64,000 bases of DNA, from positions 18,781 through 82,780 of the IMG/VR virus record IMGVR_UViG_3300033073_000489, one strand, 5' to 3'. The translations under genes were made by a program, and so were the position numbers. This stretch comes from a virus. Its lineage: Duplodnaviria > Caudoviricetes. This document shows, piece after piece, positions 18,414-64,000 of the stretch. Under the pieces are notes generated by a model. It was given only the letters and a program-made list of their open reading frames with translations, had not been told where the DNA came from and ran no database searches. Position 1 is the stretch's first letter, and every line of letters starts with the position of its first letter.

Positions 18414-19439
18414 TTAATCTGCTTTCTTGATTTCTTTAACCAATTGCTCACTACCTGGAACATAATGATATGCTCTAAAGTATTGTTGAGGAGCAGCTTC
18501 TCTTAGAGTAGCTGTTTCTTCTGCAGAAATTTCTTTAATTGTTACACCGTTAGCTACAGCATTGTCTTCGTATGCTTGCGCATCATCTAACGACCACTGA
18601 CGTTCTAACTTAGCAACAACCTTTGCTGCTTTCTTAAACACAGCTTGTTGTTCTGCTGTTAACGAATCAAAGAATGGTCCACCAACTAAGATAGTTGTTA
18701 AGAACATGCTGTGGTTTGTTTTGAGAACATTTTTACCTGCAAAGCGTAGATAAGTAGTTTCAATAGCACCACCTTTAGCTACTTGCTCTGCTGTTTGATC
18801 AATCTTCTGATTCATTCTGCTAGTTGCCTTAGCAGTAAATCTTTCAAAGAATGTGCGAGTCATTGGTGTTGTAGTAATGTCTACAGTCTTTAATGCTTCA
18901 ACACTTTCAATTGGGTGATTAGATCCAACAATGCGATATCCACCTGAGTAAGTAAATGCTAGGCCTTTGACGTTAGTCTTGTCTCCTAGTTCCTTACATA
19001 GTGAATCACCGATTTCACCGTCTAATACTTTGCTAACGTGATCGTGACTGTTAAACAAGAAAGGCAAATCTAAAGTAGCAAACTTATCGTGCAAGTGTCC
19101 GCCGATAACTGTTACTTGTGTTTGGCTTAAATGAATCTTACCGTCGCGCATGCCGTTAAACATTGCAGCCCATTTCTTAGTTACGTCTTTCCATTCAATA
19201 GGAGTAAAGAAGTCACTGTTAGGCAACGACTCGATCCCGTCGACTGTTCCTGGGCGCATTTGAAGTTCTGGAATATCTCCATACTTTTCAATATACTGTT
19301 TCATGGTTAAAATTTCAATCTCAAACTGCCCTGGTAATTCTTTTTCTAGTTCAGCAGCAAATGCTTCTGCTGTTCTAACAAACAAATAGGCAGGTTGGTG
19401 AGCAATTAACCAACGTAGTTTCATAGGTCCTTGAGACAT
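18414..19439 (-). CDS. TRAP DctP-like solute-binding protein, no signal peptide
   Basis: LDLPFLFNSHDH, GLAFTYSGGYR, FDSLTAEQQAVFKKAA. Confidence 0.8.
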   Translation of the reverse strand: MSQGPMKLRWLIAHQPAYLFVRTAEAFAAELEKELPGQFEIEILTMKQYIEKYGDIPELQMRPGTVDGIESLPNSDFFTPIEWKDVTKKWAAMFNGMRDGKIHLSQTQVTVIGGHLHDKFATLDLPFLFNSHDHVSKVLDGEIGDSLCKELGDKTNVKGLAFTYSGGYRIVGSNHPIESVEALKTVDITTTPMTRTFFERFTAKATSRMNQKIDQTAEQVAKGGAIETTYLRFAGKNVLKTNHSMFLTTILVGGPFFDSLTAEQQAVFKKAAKVVAKLERQWSLDDAQAYEDNAVANGVTIKEISAEETATLREAAPQQYFRAYHYVPGSEQLVKEIKKAD

Positions 19440-45100: not shown

Positions 45101-45223
45101 CCATTGTTGAATATTCTGCACTATTTGCCTATTCTCAACAGCTTTACTCGAGTTTACTGTTTATTGAATAAGTTACATAACGCACGATCTAAGCCTCTGA
45201 GCTTACAGAATACTCAACAATGG
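45101..45223 (-). ncRNA. Structured spacer whose 18-bp stem begins with the CCA of tRNA-Glu
   Basis: CCAUUGUUGAGUAUUCUG / CAGAAUAUUCAACAAUGG with two internal hairpins. Confidence 0.65.
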
Positions 45224-45295
45224 AGACCCATAGGAGAATCGAACTCCTCTTGCCAGGATGAAAACCTAGTGTCCTAACCGATAGACGAATGGGTC
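45221..45295 (-). tRNA. tRNA-Glu(UUC)
   Basis: Loop UUUUCAU. Confidence 0.9.
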
Positions 45296-58755: not shown

Positions 58756-59847
58756 TCAAAAAGCATCGTAGTAGCTGTAGCTCTTTTCCTTGACCTTGTT
58801 AAGGACCAAAGTAGTGCCGTCCTTGCTTACAAAGACAAACTTACCAGTTTGGCTGTCAATCTTTGTAAGGTCGGCTGGGCTGAAACGAATTCGTTCCCAA
58901 TCCCAATCAAAGTCTCCTTCGTCGTTCTTTTCGTCATCGTAAGATTTGAAGTGAACGCTGACTTGACCTTGGAGTGGGTTACCGCTCCATTCTTGGCTTT
59001 CCAGATCGGTGTCTTCCAGTTCTTCGCCGTCCTTGATCAACTTGATTGTGAACTTGTTGCCTGAATCAAATTCTGGCTTAACGTTCAACATACGCAGAGC
59101 ATCTTCTGGCGATTCGTCGTAACGGTTCATTTCTTCAACAGTTGCTTTCAACATGTCGAAGTTGAACTGTGCAAACAATGCCGCGATTTGGCACAGTTTT
59201 TCAGTGTGCTTCAACAGAGCCGGCTTCAAATTGTCATTACAATATTCTGTAATGAAGTTTGCATCCAAGCCTTTGTAGTCAATCATATAGAACAAGCGAC
59301 CAGGACGATTACGCATGTGTTGGTCAATACGCCACTTGTCGTTGCAAGTCAAGACAAACAACTTCTTGCTTGGGAATACGCCGTCAAGCAAAGTCAATGC
59401 CTGTTCTTGGCTGTCGCTATCATAGACCTTTTCAAACTCGTCAAACAGGACTACGCATGGTTGTTCGATCATCTGCATGAACGCATTAAACTTGTCACCA
59501 ACCCAAGGAGCATTGATAACGATAGTTGGAATTTCCAAACGCTTTGCGGCTTCAATTGCCAAGTTCTTAGCCAGCAATGACTTACCGGAACCTTTTTCAC
59601 CTGCTAGCATAACACCAGTAGATGAGCTACGATCCATGAACGTATTCAAAATACGGTCAGTGTTCTTGTCAAGGTCGCCGTAACGCTTACCCTTAATTTC
59701 AAATGATTCAATGTGTTCAAGATAAAGAGGACCATCCATTGGCATCTCTTTAACTACGTAATTACCTGCGGGCAACTTTTCGTGAAGATCCATAGCTTCT
59801 TTTGTAGAAACTCGGAACGTGTTACCTGACTTCAGAAAATAAGACAT
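58756..59847 (-). CDS. AAA+ ATPase
   Basis: GEKGSGKS, VLFDEFEK, NRPGR. Confidence 0.9.
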   Translation of the reverse strand: MSYFLKSGNTFRVSTKEAMDLHEKLPAGNYVVKEMPMDGPLYLEHIESFEIKGKRYGDLDKNTDRILNTFMDRSSSTGVMLAGEKGSGKSLLAKNLAIEAAKRLEIPTIVINAPWVGDKFNAFMQMIEQPCVVLFDEFEKVYDSDSQEQALTLLDGVFPSKKLFVLTCNDKWRIDQHMRNRPGRLFYMIDYKGLDANFITEYCNDNLKPALLKHTEKLCQIAALFAQFNFDMLKATVEEMNRYDESPEDALRMLNVKPEFDSGNKFTIKLIKDGEELEDTDLESQEWSGNPLQGQVSVHFKSYDDEKNDEGDFDWDWERIRFSPADLTKIDSQTGKFVFVSKDGTTLVLNKVKEKSYSYYDAF

Positions 59848-59885
59848 GAAAAATCCTTAGTGTGTCTTTGTTAATGTATGCGCTA

Positions 59886-59914
59886 ATTATAACAGGGGCT
59901 CAGGCCCCTGTCAA
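59886..59914 (-). promoter_or_regulatory. sigma70-type promoter with palindromic spacer
   Basis: TTGACA-N17-TATAAT; ACAGGGGC-TCAG-GCCCCTGT. Confidence 0.85.
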
Positions 59915-59928
59915 CTGTATTTTACAGT

Positions 59929-61329
59929 TTATTTGCGAGCGTTAGCTCGAACTTGATCGAAAGTAATTTCGTTTACAAGTTTACCATTACGGAAAACTTC
60001 TTGCAATGCAGGAACCCATCCACCGATGCCTTTGTCAGTCCAACCAGTTGGAGCAGTGACACCGCTAGCAAACTCACCACCACTGTTAGTCCAAAGTTGG
60101 ACACGACCAGCTTTTGACTTCTTGCCAGAGTCAGTAACAGGATCTTTTTGCACATCGACCCATTTACCGTTAATTTCCGCACTCGAGCATTTCATTGCAA
60201 ACTTTTGAGTATCGCGATCTACTTGTTGCAGTAGTGCGCCGCCCATACCAAATGCAATGTTATCGGCACTATAGCCATACACTTGGAATGAACCAAGGAT
60301 ACAACGAATAGTGTGTTCGTTAACACCGTCACCTTGGATAAGGCGAACGTTGTTAAGGACCTTGAAGCCTTTGCTGTTAACAGTAGATCCAAACTTTTGG
60401 TCTAAGATTTGAACAAGTTGTCGACATACAACGTCAGGATCCCCAGAGTCTGGACGGATGACAACAGTAGCGCCACTATCAATAACCTTCTGCTTGAGTT
60501 CTTCACCCCAGAGTTTCGAGGCAGCGTTGAAGATATCATAACTATCGCTAACCACTGCAACGATACTACCAGGCTTAGCAAATTGAGCAAGCATATTTTC
60601 ATAGGCTTTTACCTCACCATCACGGCCCCAGCTAGTAATTGTTGAGTGTTCGGCGGCAGGGATAGAAAAGCCGCTAACCCCAGCATCATAGTATTCGCGA
60701 GCATACAGAACACCAGAAATAGTATCACTACCCATGAAGTTAACCAAGTGTGCCGCACCTCCGATAGCCGCTGATTCCAAGCTAGAAACACCACGAGCAC
60801 CGAAATCGTGCAACTTAAAGTCAATAAGGGAAGGGTCACCTGTTTTCTCCAATGCGTCTAAGATAACCTTGCGGATTGTGTAACTCTGTGTTGCCACAGT
60901 AGTTGGATACCACACGGCACGAAGCAAGGCAGTTTCGAGCCAGGTAGTTAGCCAGAAGCATTCTGGATCAGTGTTTTCAATCGTTGCCAGGACTTGCTTG
61001 ACTGGGACAACTGTGCCTTCAGGGACGGCTCTGATAACAACTGGGAGGTATCCAGAGTGCTTGTCAAGAATGTATTGCCATCCTGCTCTGTTGAAAGGCT
61101 CACCGTGTGCGGTAAGGATCTCGTCAGCAATGTCGATATCGGATTGCGTGATAGGATCGAGCAAGTATTCCTTGATAAAGGCCTGTAGTCCGAACATGAC
61201 AGTTTTGTCATATCGACCGCCTCGCGATTCAATGTAAGAATATACACCAGTAGTTCCTGCTGGATATTGTTTGAACATCGACACTTTGTATGAGTCGGTG
61301 TTGAGAATAATGTTTTTTGCTAGTTTCAT
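59929..61329 (-). CDS. nadV: Nicotinamide phosphoribosyltransferase (NAMPT)
   Basis: TDSYKVS, LHDFGARG, PAAEHS, SDSYD, IRPDSGDP, QGDG, FGMGG. Confidence 0.93.
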   Translation of the reverse strand: MKLAKNIILNTDSYKVSMFKQYPAGTTGVYSYIESRGGRYDKTVMFGLQAFIKEYLLDPITQSDIDIADEILTAHGEPFNRAGWQYILDKHSGYLPVVIRAVPEGTVVPVKQVLATIENTDPECFWLTTWLETALLRAVWYPTTVATQSYTIRKVILDALEKTGDPSLIDFKLHDFGARGVSSLESAAIGGAAHLVNFMGSDTISGVLYAREYYDAGVSGFSIPAAEHSTITSWGRDGEVKAYENMLAQFAKPGSIVAVVSDSYDIFNAASKLWGEELKQKVIDSGATVVIRPDSGDPDVVCRQLVQILDQKFGSTVNSKGFKVLNNVRLIQGDGVNEHTIRCILGSFQVYGYSADNIAFGMGGALLQQVDRDTQKFAMKCSSAEINGKWVDVQKDPVTDSGKKSKAGRVQLWTNSGGEFASGVTAPTGWTDKGIGGWVPALQEVFRNGKLVNEITFDQVRANARK

Positions 61330-61352
61330 GATAAACTCCTTATCAGTTAATC

Positions 61353-61376
61353 ACCCGTTGCGTCTATCGCTTGGGC
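61353..61376 (-). promoter_or_regulatory. Leader hairpin motif 1 (CGAUAGACG)
   Basis: GCCC-AA-GCG-AUAGA-CGC-AAC-GGGU upstream of the AAGGAG SD. Confidence 0.65.
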
Positions 61377-61384
61377 TTAGTTAT

Positions 61385-61413
61385 AGTATAACGTCTACAC
61401 CATGTAGCGTCAA
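61385..61413 (-). promoter_or_regulatory. sigma70-type promoter of NAMPT
   Basis: TTGACG-N17-TATACT. Confidence 0.75.
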
Positions 61414-61614
61414 CTATTTCTTACCACGAATGGCATTTAGCTTGTCCAATCGTTCGTAATCTTCTCTGCACTCTTTTGAGCAAAATGCTCCTTGAGTTGG
61501 TTCTTCACAGGCCAAACAGAATCCAGTTTTCTCTGGAACTTTTGCCCTGTTGCGTAACGCTTCTTGAAATAACATTTCGGTTACTTGTTCCGCGTCTTCT
61601 AACATATCTGCCAT
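61414..61614 (-). CDS. TraR/DksA-like C4 zinc-finger protein
   Basis: Start MADMLEDA; CLAC...FCSKEC; ends in TAG. Confidence 0.65.
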   Translation of the reverse strand: MADMLEDAEQVTEMLFQEALRNRAKVPEKTGFCLACEEPTQGAFCSKECREDYERLDKLNAIRGKK

Positions 61615-61624
61615 TTTATTATCC

Positions 61625-62089
61625 TTATTGCCCAAATTCAACTAATGTAACTGAGCCACCTTGAGCTGTCATTTTGGCTGCAAAATCTTCAATCATTGGA
61701 ATGATGCGATTTGGATCTCCTCCAGCTAACCCCATTCCAATCATTGGCAGACCAATTCGATATTTACCAAATCGTTTTGCCAATTTATCTAGGATTATTT
61801 GGAAACTTGTGTATTCAAATACATCCTCGCCTGGATAGCTTGCTGTGTTATATTGGGTGTAGGCGTTGATAACAACTAAACGTCCTGCCATACCAATTGT
61901 ATAGCAACCCAACTTGTTACGATCGCCGGCTAGCGTTTCTTGATCAGCTAGCCATGCATCTGGAAACTGCTCACGAATGCTTTTGGCAATACCACTACCC
62001 ATTACGTTCCAGCAGTTACAGCCTTGAACAATAATGTCAAACTCGTTTGCCTTACCTAGTGCGAGCAAGTCGCCTTTAACTAATTTCAT
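61625..62089 (-). CDS. Macro domain (ADP-ribose binding/hydrolase) protein
   Basis: KGDLL, QGCNC..MGSGIA, INAYTQ, PMIGMGLAGGD. Confidence 0.9.
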   Translation of the reverse strand: MKLVKGDLLALGKANEFDIIVQGCNCWNVMGSGIAKSIREQFPDAWLADQETLAGDRNKLGCYTIGMAGRLVVINAYTQYNTASYPGEDVFEYTSFQIILDKLAKRFGKYRIGLPMIGMGLAGGDPNRIIPMIEDFAAKMTAQGGSVTLVEFGQ

Positions 62090-62090
62090 G

Positions 62091-63128
62091 TTATGATCCT
62101 AAGAAGTGTTGAATAATTTCGTAGTGGTCTTCAAAGCATTCCTCGCTTCTAACTTCAGCGATAGGAACCCACCGTGCTTTTTCTGCGTCATCGCTACCTT
62201 TTACCTTAGGCAACTCACCGTCGGGAAGTTGAATGTAAAAGGCATGCGTAATTATACGTCCTCTAGGACTTCTGTCAATTGCATCGAACACTTTGCTACG
62301 GACAATACTGCCACGAAGCACAGGAGCAGGAACTTTGATCATCGTTTCTTCACGCAACTCACGAATGGCCGCATCTTCAACTGACTTGTCAGTATTAGCG
62401 TTTACATATCCGCCTGGCAATGCCCACAGGCCTCGACCTGGCTCAGCACGGCGCTTGATAAGCAAGATGTGTCCGCTTTGAATCACAACCGCATCGGCAG
62501 TTGAGAAGATTGGCGGGTAGGGCAAACTTGCATATTGTTTCTTGTAAGTTTCCACAAACTCGCGTTCGCGAATGATTTGTTCGTATTCTGGAGTAGATTT
62601 GAATCGTTCAAGGAAATCAAAAGTGCTTTCTGGAACTACGCCTTTAATGAACTTCATGTTGACATCACGCTTGAAGAACAAGTCACGAATGTTAACGGCT
62701 GACAGGAACTCGATAAGTTCTACATCTTCATATCCCCATTGTGGGAACATATCAAGATAGAAACTACTGTCGTCTTTTTTGTGACCGATGATGCCGACCT
62801 TCATATTTTCTTTGGGACCATAATTGTCCCAAGTGTGTTTGGCTACAAGTTGCTGGACGCGAACTGCCCATGCTTGATCGTTGTAGATAGTATCTGTATT
62901 GGCTTCGATGCTGATCTGCATACTAAGACCTGCTGTAGCGGCACGGATCATATCACGGCGCTCGGCAAAAGTAAATGGGTTCTTATAAGTGCGTGGTTGG
63001 CAAGAACTACCAACGACAATAACCAACTTATCGCACAGGGCCGTGGCACGTTTGATAATCTCTAAGTGAGCACTATGAATTGGTTGAAAACGTCCAATGA
63101 GGACGAGGGTATCGTATTTTTTAGACAT
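62091..63128 (-). CDS. nadM: Bifunctional NMN adenylyltransferase / Nudix ADP-ribose hydrolase
   Basis: GRFQPIHSAH, NPFTFAER, LSAVNIR, Nudix GGYV...AAIRELREET, SDDA. Confidence 0.92.
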   Translation of the reverse strand: MSKKYDTLVLIGRFQPIHSAHLEIIKRATALCDKLVIVVGSSCQPRTYKNPFTFAERRDMIRAATAGLSMQISIEANTDTIYNDQAWAVRVQQLVAKHTWDNYGPKENMKVGIIGHKKDDSSFYLDMFPQWGYEDVELIEFLSAVNIRDLFFKRDVNMKFIKGVVPESTFDFLERFKSTPEYEQIIREREFVETYKKQYASLPYPPIFSTADAVVIQSGHILLIKRRAEPGRGLWALPGGYVNANTDKSVEDAAIRELREETMIKVPAPVLRGSIVRSKVFDAIDRSPRGRIITHAFYIQLPDGELPKVKGSDDAEKARWVPIAEVRSEECFEDHYEIIQHFLGS

Positions 63129-63150
63129 TGAAAAATCCTTTCAATAATGT

Positions 63151-63175
63151 CAGCGCCACGTCTATCGTTTTGCTA
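63151..63175 (-). promoter_or_regulatory. Leader hairpin motif 2 (CGAUAGACG)
   Basis: UAGC-AAA-ACG-AUAGA-CGU-GGC-GCUG upstream of the AAAGGA SD. Confidence 0.65.
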
Positions 63176-63219
63176 TATTTTTATTTATGCCTTAAGTATA
63201 ACACTAAGGCATAAACTGG

Positions 63220-63663
63220 TCAAGCTAATTTGGCTCTAATTTCCATGTAGAATTGATGATACTTAGCCATTCGGGCGATGTCTTTTTCAGTTACCCCTTT
63301 GAGTCTACGGATGTCAGTGTTGTGACGCAGATCAGCCATTTTGACACGCATTGCATCTTCACTAGCAAATACGCCTTCCTTATATTCTTCATAAGTTTGG
63401 CCCGGTTGCTTAGTAAGAGCACGGATACCAGTAATAACACGCTCGCTAATACCAGCTTCACGAAGTTCCTTGTAAGTAACCTTAGTGTCTTCAATAACGT
63501 CATGACCTAATGCCATGCACATCAGTTCTTCGTCGTCGGACTTCAAGTAGTGCATAACTTTGAGAGGGTGGAGAATGTAGGGGTTTCCACCTCTGTCAAA
63601 TTGACCGTGGTGTGCATTAGTTACAATAACTAGCATCTTGTCTAACATTTCGCCTTTTCTCAT
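63220..63663 (-). CDS. HD-domain protein, RelA/SpoT hydrolase-like
   Basis: AHHGQFDRGGNPYILHP, ALGHDVIEDT, VKMADLRHN. Confidence 0.85.
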   Translation of the reverse strand: MRKGEMLDKMLVIVTNAHHGQFDRGGNPYILHPLKVMHYLKSDDEELMCMALGHDVIEDTKVTYKELREAGISERVITGIRALTKQPGQTYEEYKEGVFASEDAMRVKMADLRHNTDIRRLKGVTEKDIARMAKYHQFYMEIRAKLA

Positions 63664-63742
63664 TTTGGACTCCTTTTACTACACTTTTAGTATAACATCA
63701 AAGCTATCTTTGTCAACCGGTGTTGTTTTAAAGCCACAAAAG

Positions 63743-63764
63743 AAAAGCGCCCGAAGGCGCTTTC
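63743..63764 (-). terminator. Intrinsic terminator ending the tmRNA coding piece
   Basis: AAAGCGCC-UUCG-GGCGCUUUU. Confidence 0.85.
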
Positions 63765-63982
63765 TGCTATTTTGGGTGACAAGGTATAACTACCTCGCAA
63801 GTGCAGTTTCTTAGGCTGCTAGTTCGAAACGCTCAGCGTTTGCAGCCTTAGCTACGAATGCTGGCACTTCGAAGTGCTTGAATGTAGATGCTGTTGCATT
63901 TACTAGTTTTGCTTGATTTACGGTCATCGCCTACCGTGTTGCCGTCTTCAATATCTACCCCTGTCGAAACCATGGCAGGCCC
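63765..63982 (-). ncRNA. ssrA: tmRNA, 5'/coding piece (probably permuted two-piece gene)
   Basis: 5' GGGCCUGCCAUGGUUUCGACAGGG; UAAAU before resume GCA; tag ORF 63897-63811 ATASTFKHFEVPAFVAKAANAERFELAA. Confidence 0.85.
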
Positions 63983-64000
63983 ATTATAAAACACACTAGA

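Follow-up and report, generated by a model that had tools for sequence, protein, structure and literature searches.

A predicted two-hairpin leader RNA conserved ahead of the NAD-salvage genes nadM and nadV in phages

NadV and NadM-Nudix allow phages to rebuild NAD+ after the action of NAD-depleting defences such as Thoeris, DSR and other SIR2 systems, and we know of no account of how phages control this costly reconstitution pathway. Here, we analyzed a stretch of 64,000 nucleotides (nt), hereafter the window, from the Caudoviricetes record IMGVR_UViG_3300033073_000489 (positions 18,781 to 82,780), in which a nadM-Nudix gene with two small genes and a NAMPT/nadV gene form two NAD-salvage transcription units. 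Comparison with relatives predicts that both units are headed by a conserved leader RNA of about 55 nt, composed of two hairpins, P1 and P2. We favour the interpretation that this leader is a translational operator read via the P1 loop, by a protein more likely than by a metabolite; we hold it with middling confidence, the reader being putative.

Results

The leaders of both units share two hairpins

On the coding strand, which is the minus strand, CGATAGACG was found 35-38 nt ahead of the ATG of both NAMPT/nadV (61361-61369) and nadM-Nudix (63159-63167). A preliminary description of the window, made from the letters alone, had drawn a shared leader hairpin as GCCC-AA-GCG-AUAGA-CGC-AAC-GGGU before NAMPT and as UAGC-AAA-ACG-AUAGA-CGU-GGC-GCUG before NadM, 10-12 nt before the Shine-Dalgarno (SD) sequence. 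The minus strand reads exactly so at 61376-61353 and 63175-63151, respectively, and each P1 ends 12 nt ahead of the SD sequence AGGA. P1 was therefore confirmed, as only half of the element: the covarying hairpin P2, which contains the SD and the AUG, had been missed. RNAfold returned P1 and P2 together as the minimum-energy fold of both window leaders (Table 1).

CGATAGACG is present three times in the window compared to 0.2 expected, and three copies were reached in none of 100 shuffles. The earlier statement that this 9-mer occurs nowhere else in the window has to be corrected, a third copy being located at 45279-45287 (+). This copy is unrelated; it lies inside a minus-strand tRNA-Glu gene (45221-45295) and has no flanking stem.

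P1 covaries around an invariant loop

Protein-guided scans of IMG/VR returned 80 nadM and 80 nadV loci with 75-89% protein identity. A hairpin with a GATAGAC loop heads the nadM unit in 75 of the 79 assessable loci, directly before nadM in 49 and before a small open reading frame (ORF) preceding nadM in 26, and is found directly upstream of nadV in 45 of 79. From these relatives, an ungapped alignment of 126 distinct P1 35-mers, chosen for their two apical pairs, was analyzed. Only seven positions were invariant, corresponding to the loop and its closing pair (G-AUAGA-C), and nearly every position of the stem had changed. Over the 9-pair stem, 73.5% of the cells were paired compared to 52.8% after shuffling, and the covariation score was 0.45 compared to 0.13, a value reached in none of 500 shuffles, with slid controls at or below 0.15. 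Pair 9-27 was paired in 99% of the sequences, using CG, AU, UA and GC. The internal loop is replaced by full pairing in many relatives.

When the two apical pairs were recounted without selection on pairing, the coding strand gave 27 G.U and 2 A.C; where GATAGAC occurred on the opposite strand, no pairing was seen. In the fetched loci, we counted 221 occurrences of GATAGAC with flanking pairs on the coding strand and a single one on the opposite strand. In several relatives (L084, L098, L112), P1 follows the nadM stop codon and precedes nadV without any promoter. Because the stem covaries around a fixed loop and G.U pairs are confined to the coding strand, P1 is predicted to be an RNA helix and not a DNA palindrome or operator. 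The motif is present in the leaders of relatives and covaries as RNA instead of being conserved as DNA without covariation, two of the points on which the preliminary description had let its proposal depend.

P2 presents the Shine-Dalgarno sequence and contains the start codon

P2 accompanies every P1-bearing leader, as a stem of 5-8 pairs closed by A-U with the SD in a GGANN pentaloop and with the AUG in the 3' arm or within a few nt of it. In sequences that were not chosen on pairing, 91.3% of the P2 cells were paired compared to 62.6% after shuffling, the covariation reached 0.664 compared to 0.129, and two pairs were 100% paired while using four Watson-Crick types. The distance from P1 to the AUG was 29-35 nt, with one leader at 37 nt. 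RNAalifold, run on 47 diverse full leaders, predicted both hairpins unguided.

The element is specific to NAD-salvage genes

We built a covariance model, R1. In the 64-kb window, R1 scored 34.3 bits at the nadM leader and 26.2 bits at the nadV leader, the next best match reaching 11.2 bits, and P2-type hairpins were found only before these two genes. In each of four related contigs (229-355 kb; one rated 100% complete), R1 identified exactly two strong sites, all of them NAD-salvage leaders. Extra matches of 23 bits in L174 and L175, located inside ORFs and lacking P2, were taken as chance. Among 151 cyanobacterial genomes, R1 gave 19 matches, none within 1.5 kb of nadM or nadV, and a scan of bacterial genome contigs yielded two distant loci only, the cyanobacterial one without P1. 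Overall, these results suggest a leader kept in many phages almost only before NAD-salvage genes.

GATAGAC-loop hairpins do appear elsewhere in gigabase-scale data. A near-identical perfect hairpin, AAACCCCAC-GATAGAC-GTGGGGAA, followed by an A-run, was observed in two different cyanobacteria (L321, L324), away from both nadM and nadV, and represents an unrelated repeated element or chance.

The two-hairpin plan extends to cultured phages and to other loop classes

The G-AUAGA-C loop heads both nadM and nadV in Xanthomonas phage LucasX. It heads nadM in Xanthomonas phage RTH11, which has G-GUAGA-C at nadV, and nadV in the T4-like Synechococcus phage B23, which has A-AUAGA-U at nadM. Other uncultured clades keep the two-hairpin plan with a P1 loop AGAGA, AGUGA, GGAGA or GGUGA closed by C-G, together with a C-GGAGA-G P2, or, before a diverged nadM, with a P1 loop GUAGU or GCAGU. 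Among the genomes examined, those with a P1 at both leaders have the same loop class at both, with no mixing. Phages RsoM2USA, XacN1 and RAS14 and several T4-like phages carry P2 on nadV or nadM with a different P1 or none.

The association with the two enzymes was also followed. Staphylococcus Kayvirus vB_Sau_191 and Pseudomonas phage PAK_P4 encode NadV and have no NadM-Nudix genome-wide, and their nadV leaders have neither hairpin. T4-like phages with NadM-Nudix have a P2-type hairpin, clearest in Kp_GWPR59 and R11Z and looser in Riv-10. Of five P1-bearing nadV loci without a nearby nadM, three have nadM elsewhere on the contig, and the contigs of the other two are fragments (13% and 4% complete).

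The leader does not belong to a known RNA family

The preliminary description could not match the leader to the NAD-I or NAD-II riboswitch consensus. In line with this, cmscan against Rfam 15, applied to positions 59000-64000 and to the single leaders with E values allowed up to 10, found no family near its gathering score, NAD+-I and NAD+-II included. The best sub-threshold matches were Yar_1, STnc410, CRISPR-DR26, sau-6072 and SQ1002_RNA on the opposite strand, and osmY on the coding strand (9.5 bits, E 4.3). A search of the full-text literature on phage nadV/NAMPT riboswitches and RNA motifs returned no description of the leader. It thus seems to represent a sizeable structured-RNA family absent from Rfam.

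Like the phage element, NAD+-I (the nadA motif) and NAD+-II (the pnuC motif) act in cis from the leaders of genes for NAD metabolism, and class II, too, does so at the ribosome-binding site (RBS). The phage element differs from them by its much smaller size, its architecture, the genes it precedes (nadV and nadM) and its presence in phages. The guanidine-II (mini-ykkC) riboswitch, which has two identical ACGR tetraloops, resembles it in its build: both RNAs consist of two very small hairpins separated by a short linker, the loops being conserved and the stems covarying, and the RBS is located at the second hairpin. In contrast, the phage loops are AUAGA (P1) and GGANN (P2), without an Rfam match, and the P1 loop changes between clades; membership of guanidine-II, for which the same ACGR tetraloop is required in both hairpins, was thus rejected.

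Discussion

A translational operator with a putative reader

The preliminary description had proposed a cis-regulatory RNA common to both NAD-salvage units. This part is strongly supported by the covariation, by the strand and gene specificity and by the conservation into cultured phages; the two readings that it offered, a riboswitch and an operator bound by NadM-Nudix, are both only candidates. In the interpretation that we favour, P1 would display the invariant G-AUAGA-C pentaloop on a variable stem and, 12 nt downstream, P2 would form a weak AU-rich hairpin with the SD exposed in its GGANN pentaloop and the start codon paired. The element would set translation initiation at both units (nadM-Nudix with two small genes; NAMPT/nadV). 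A trans-acting reader would recognise the P1 loop and, from this position at the 5' border of the ribosome-binding region, would stabilise or occlude P2, so that both units would be turned down, or up, together. We infer the translational control, the existence of the reader and its identity from the following points. The leader has traits of an operator, with invariant unpaired bases on a free covarying stem and a P2 whose loop contains the SD and whose stem includes the AUG. Since the loop class varies by clade while the two leaders of a genome match, a co-evolving protein fits better than a metabolite that stays the same. As only NadM-Nudix and NadV always travel with the element, we regard NadM-Nudix as the leading candidate.

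Such an arrangement would have precedents. The MS2/R17 coat-protein operator stands at the replicase start, and binding of the coat protein shuts translation. It is likewise a small weak hairpin that contains the start codon next to the SD, and it is recognised through a few invariant unpaired bases while the sequence of the stem is free. The phage leader has no sequence likeness to it, and differs in having two hairpins, with the presumed recognised loop (P1) apart from the RBS hairpin (P2), in preceding metabolic enzymes of double-stranded DNA phages and in having a putative reader. Autogenous operators read by enzymes are also known, namely the Escherichia coli thrS leader, read by threonyl-tRNA synthetase (ThrRS), and the operator of gene 43 in T4/RB69. 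Both are leader hairpins with a conserved loop, just upstream of the RBS of the binder's own gene, through which an enzyme feeds back on its own production. However, binding to nucleic acid belongs to the normal work of ThrRS and DNA polymerase, whereas it is not known of NadM-Nudix or NadV. Moreover, one element would control two separate units in the present case, and the binder is a candidate.

Several observations weigh against this interpretation. Neither NadM-Nudix nor NadV is, to our knowledge, an RNA-binding protein, and only the two expected domains were found in the NadM-Nudix of the window. The link between this enzyme and the element rests on few phages and is confounded by common descent, as almost all carriers have both genes. 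The folding-energy z-scores of the two leaders are unremarkable (-1.2 and -1.5); the structural case therefore rests on the comparative data and not on energy. Some nadV genes retain P2 alone, P1 being dispensable there. In the nadM units with a small ORF after the leader, nadM itself has no hairpin, and control must pass down the operon by coupling or mRNA fate. In metatranscriptome data, contigs end in adapter sequence inside the P1 loop of both leaders, which hints at processing instead of, or besides, protein binding. Finally, the hosts of LucasX and B23 are very distant, which counts against a host-specific protein as reader.

The small ORF just mentioned (108-155 aa) is found between the leader and nadM in about one third of the related nadM units, where it takes over the leader. 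Four of these ORFs were searched (Table 1). None had a Pfam domain; three matched PHROGs of unknown function (phrog_37251, phrog_12218, phrog_33851) and the fourth matched none. Therefore, they offer no candidate reader.

Alternative explanations

The trans-acting protein could be replaced by a metabolite. The leader would be a compact riboswitch whose P1, either by itself or docked to the loop of P2, binds NAD+, nicotinamide mononucleotide (NMN), nicotinamide, ADP-ribose or phosphoribosyl pyrophosphate (PRPP) and thereby changes the access to the SD and AUG in P2; the phage would then make its salvage enzymes only while NAD is being destroyed. The restriction of the element to NAD-salvage genes and the RBS within the second hairpin, as in small translational riboswitches, agree with this possibility, as does the same loop in phages of hosts as distant as Xanthomonas and Synechococcus. 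In addition, the clade with AGAGA or GGAGA has both loops alike, both closed by C-G, which recalls the twin hairpins of guanidine-II. However, only about 7 nt are invariant, forming a simple pentaloop, and the internal loop of P1, so often replaced by full pairing, does not represent a conserved pocket. Clades also differ in their P1 loop, though the ligand would be the same. No conserved pseudoknot, anti-SD or alternative pairing of the P1 loop or 3' arm was seen in the leaders inspected by eye, and no Rfam riboswitch family matched. We therefore consider a riboswitch unlikely. A related possibility, to which we likewise attach a low probability, is a new and very small riboswitch class, or a ligand-dependent RNA-protein switch, that would sense a product of immune NAD destruction (ADP-ribose, nicotinamide) or NAD+ itself. 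If so, NadV and NadM-Nudix would be switched on only when an NADase defence of the host fires.

It is rather doubtful, in our opinion, that the leader acts chiefly as a processing or stability element, in which the AUAGA loop would be the target of an endoribonuclease of host or phage setting the half-life or timing of both mRNAs, or in which P1 would be a protective 5' stem-loop. The hint comes from run X20, the only run recorded as a metatranscriptome; in all sequencing runs, the contigs derive from mixed relatives, and depth and coverage gaps carry no evidence. In X20, two contigs from relatives run from the nadV and nadM coding regions into Illumina adapter inside the P1 loop (window 61348-61365 and 63150-63163). 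Their sense strands begin GACGCAA... (after AUA) and AGACUUU... (after AU), which places these ends 13 and 25 nt past the predicted starts of transcription, and P1 of nadV itself begins at about +2 of the predicted transcript. These ends may represent a processing site or discrete RNA 5' end, or a library artefact. They come from one run, with one contig per site, and from relatives instead of this phage; contigs cannot prove RNA ends, as 5'-end loss or PCR duplicates in library making could look alike. Moreover, a mere protective stem-loop would need no invariant loop, and the covarying P2 is left unexplained. A constitutive initiation structure without any reader, where P2 would present the SD and tune the start rate, P1 would insulate it from upstream sequence and the pair would be inherited with a mobile nadM-nadV cassette, appears quite improbable. 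P2 is more widespread than any one P1 loop, and common descent of the cassette could partly produce the gene specificity. Nevertheless, seven loop nt are fixed over 126 sequences in which the stem changed nearly everywhere, and, across clades, a genome has one loop class at its two paralogous leaders; a fixed loop with matched loop classes therefore calls for sequence-specific recognition. Finally, we regard as highly improbable a DNA operator just downstream of the promoters, bound by a transcription factor that is NrtR-like or by NadM-Nudix acting on DNA. In its favour, a strong promoter stands no more than 30 nt upstream of each site. Bacterial nadM-nadV and prs-nadV operons are, in addition, regulated by NrtR, a repressor related to Nudix proteins that ADP-ribose releases (PMC2330246), which is a comparable dedicated control of the same salvage genes involving a Nudix-fold sensor protein. 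However, what is conserved here differs from the NrtR site, a 21-bp DNA palindrome whose core is GT-N7-AC (PMC2330246) and to which a winged-helix domain binds. The phage element behaves as single-stranded RNA: its core GATAGAC is asymmetric, its arms vary freely yet stay complementary with G.U far above A.C on one strand only, its strand bias is extreme, and it is also found between genes without any promoter. Identity with the NrtR operator was thus rejected.

With a dedicated RNA control element, widely conserved and present at both units, NAD reconstitution would gain its first regulatory handle. The leader is compact (55 nt) and readily testable, and carriers are available in culture, namely LucasX and RTH11 on Xanthomonas and B23 on Synechococcus. 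Reading by NadM-Nudix would give a Nudix enzyme an RNA-binding, self-regulating role, and reading by a metabolite would define a new riboswitch class.

Genomic context of the leaders

The source contig in IMG/VR has 82.8 kb and an estimated completeness of 23%, and therefore comes from a jumbo phage. The window carries 43 tRNA genes and one tmRNA. Megablast of the locus against GenBank phages returned no near-identical phage DNA, and the phage clade of the window is uncultured. The closest cultured NAMPT is that of Ralstonia phage RsoM2USA (59.6% identity), whose leaders bear other hairpins. The genes and promoters of the locus are presented in Table 1; transcription is predicted to start near A63188 for the nadM unit and near A61378 for nadV.

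Table 1. Positions of the leader hairpins, genes and promoters at the NAD-salvage locus (window coordinates), and of the small ORFs searched in relatives (coordinates preceded by the locus).
Feature	Position	Strand	Evidence
P1, nadM leader: outer stem UAGC/GCUG, 3x3 internal loop, apical stem ACG/CGU, loop AUAGA 63165-63161	63151..63175	minus	34.3 bits; minimum-energy fold; covariation in relatives
P1, nadV leader: outer stem GCCC/GGGU, 2x3 internal loop, apical stem GCG/CGC, loop AUAGA 61367-61363	61353..61376	minus	26.2 bits; minimum-energy fold; covariation in relatives
P2, nadM leader: stem UAUUGAAA / UUUCAAUG, SD pentaloop GGAUU 63138-63134, AUG 63128-63126 paired in 3' arm	63126..63146	minus	fold; covariation in relatives
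P2, nadV leader: stem UGAUAA / UUAUCA, SD pentaloop GGAGU 61339-61335, A of AUG (61329) as last paired base	61327..61345	minus	fold; covariation in relatives
nadM-Nudix gene, 345 aa, predicted bifunctional NMN adenylyltransferase / ADP-ribose pyrophosphatase	62091..63128	minus	PF01467 3e-13; PF00293 5e-21
Macro-like/phosphatase protein, 154 aa, gene 2 of the nadM unit	61625..62089	minus	weak Macro match, E 0.004; phrog_335 'phosphatase' 1e-44
DksA-like zinc-finger protein, 66 aa, gene 3 of the nadM unit	61414..61614	minus	phrog_54, 5e-6
NAMPT/nadV gene, 466 aa	59929..61329	minus	PF04095 2e-62; PF18127 7e-28
HD phosphohydrolase gene	63220-63663	minus	
Predicted sigma-70-type promoter of the nadM unit, TTGACC-17-TATACT, TG ahead of -10	63195..63223	minus	10/12 consensus matches
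Predicted sigma-70-type promoter of nadV, TTGACG-17-TATACT	61385..61413	minus	promoter match
Small leader ORF in a relative	L017:2467-2823		
Small leader ORF in a relative	L009:2673-2999		
Small leader ORF in a relative	L071:2449-2823		
Small leader ORF in a relative	L050:2529-2996		

A perfect consensus promoter, TTGACA-16-TATAAT (12/12), was identified inside the nadM-Nudix coding region (62251-62278, minus), about 160 nt ahead of the macro-like gene, and may serve the two small genes downstream as an internal promoter. A second 12/12 promoter is present at 59886-59914, past the NAMPT stop. Inverted repeats able to form hairpins were observed in or around the spacer of all three sigma-70-type promoters at the locus (61385-61413, 63195-63223 and 63689-63716, minus): ACGCTACA-TGG-TGTAGACGT at nadV, ATGCCTTA-N10-TAAGGCAT across the -10 at nadM, and CAAAG-ATAG-CTTTG at the HD gene. 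The arms of these repeats covary among relatives (L006, L087, L095 and others), for example AAGAC-ATGGG-GTCTT and CAGGGGA-GTAAT-TCCCCTG, and the repeats may represent a promoter architecture of this phage clade. Within 63741-64000 (minus), a strong terminator hairpin is located at 63743-63764, just upstream of the HD-gene promoter, and the tmRNA gene is cut by the window end, with 66 bits for beta_tmRNA and 53.9 bits, above the gathering score, for tmRNA_permuted.

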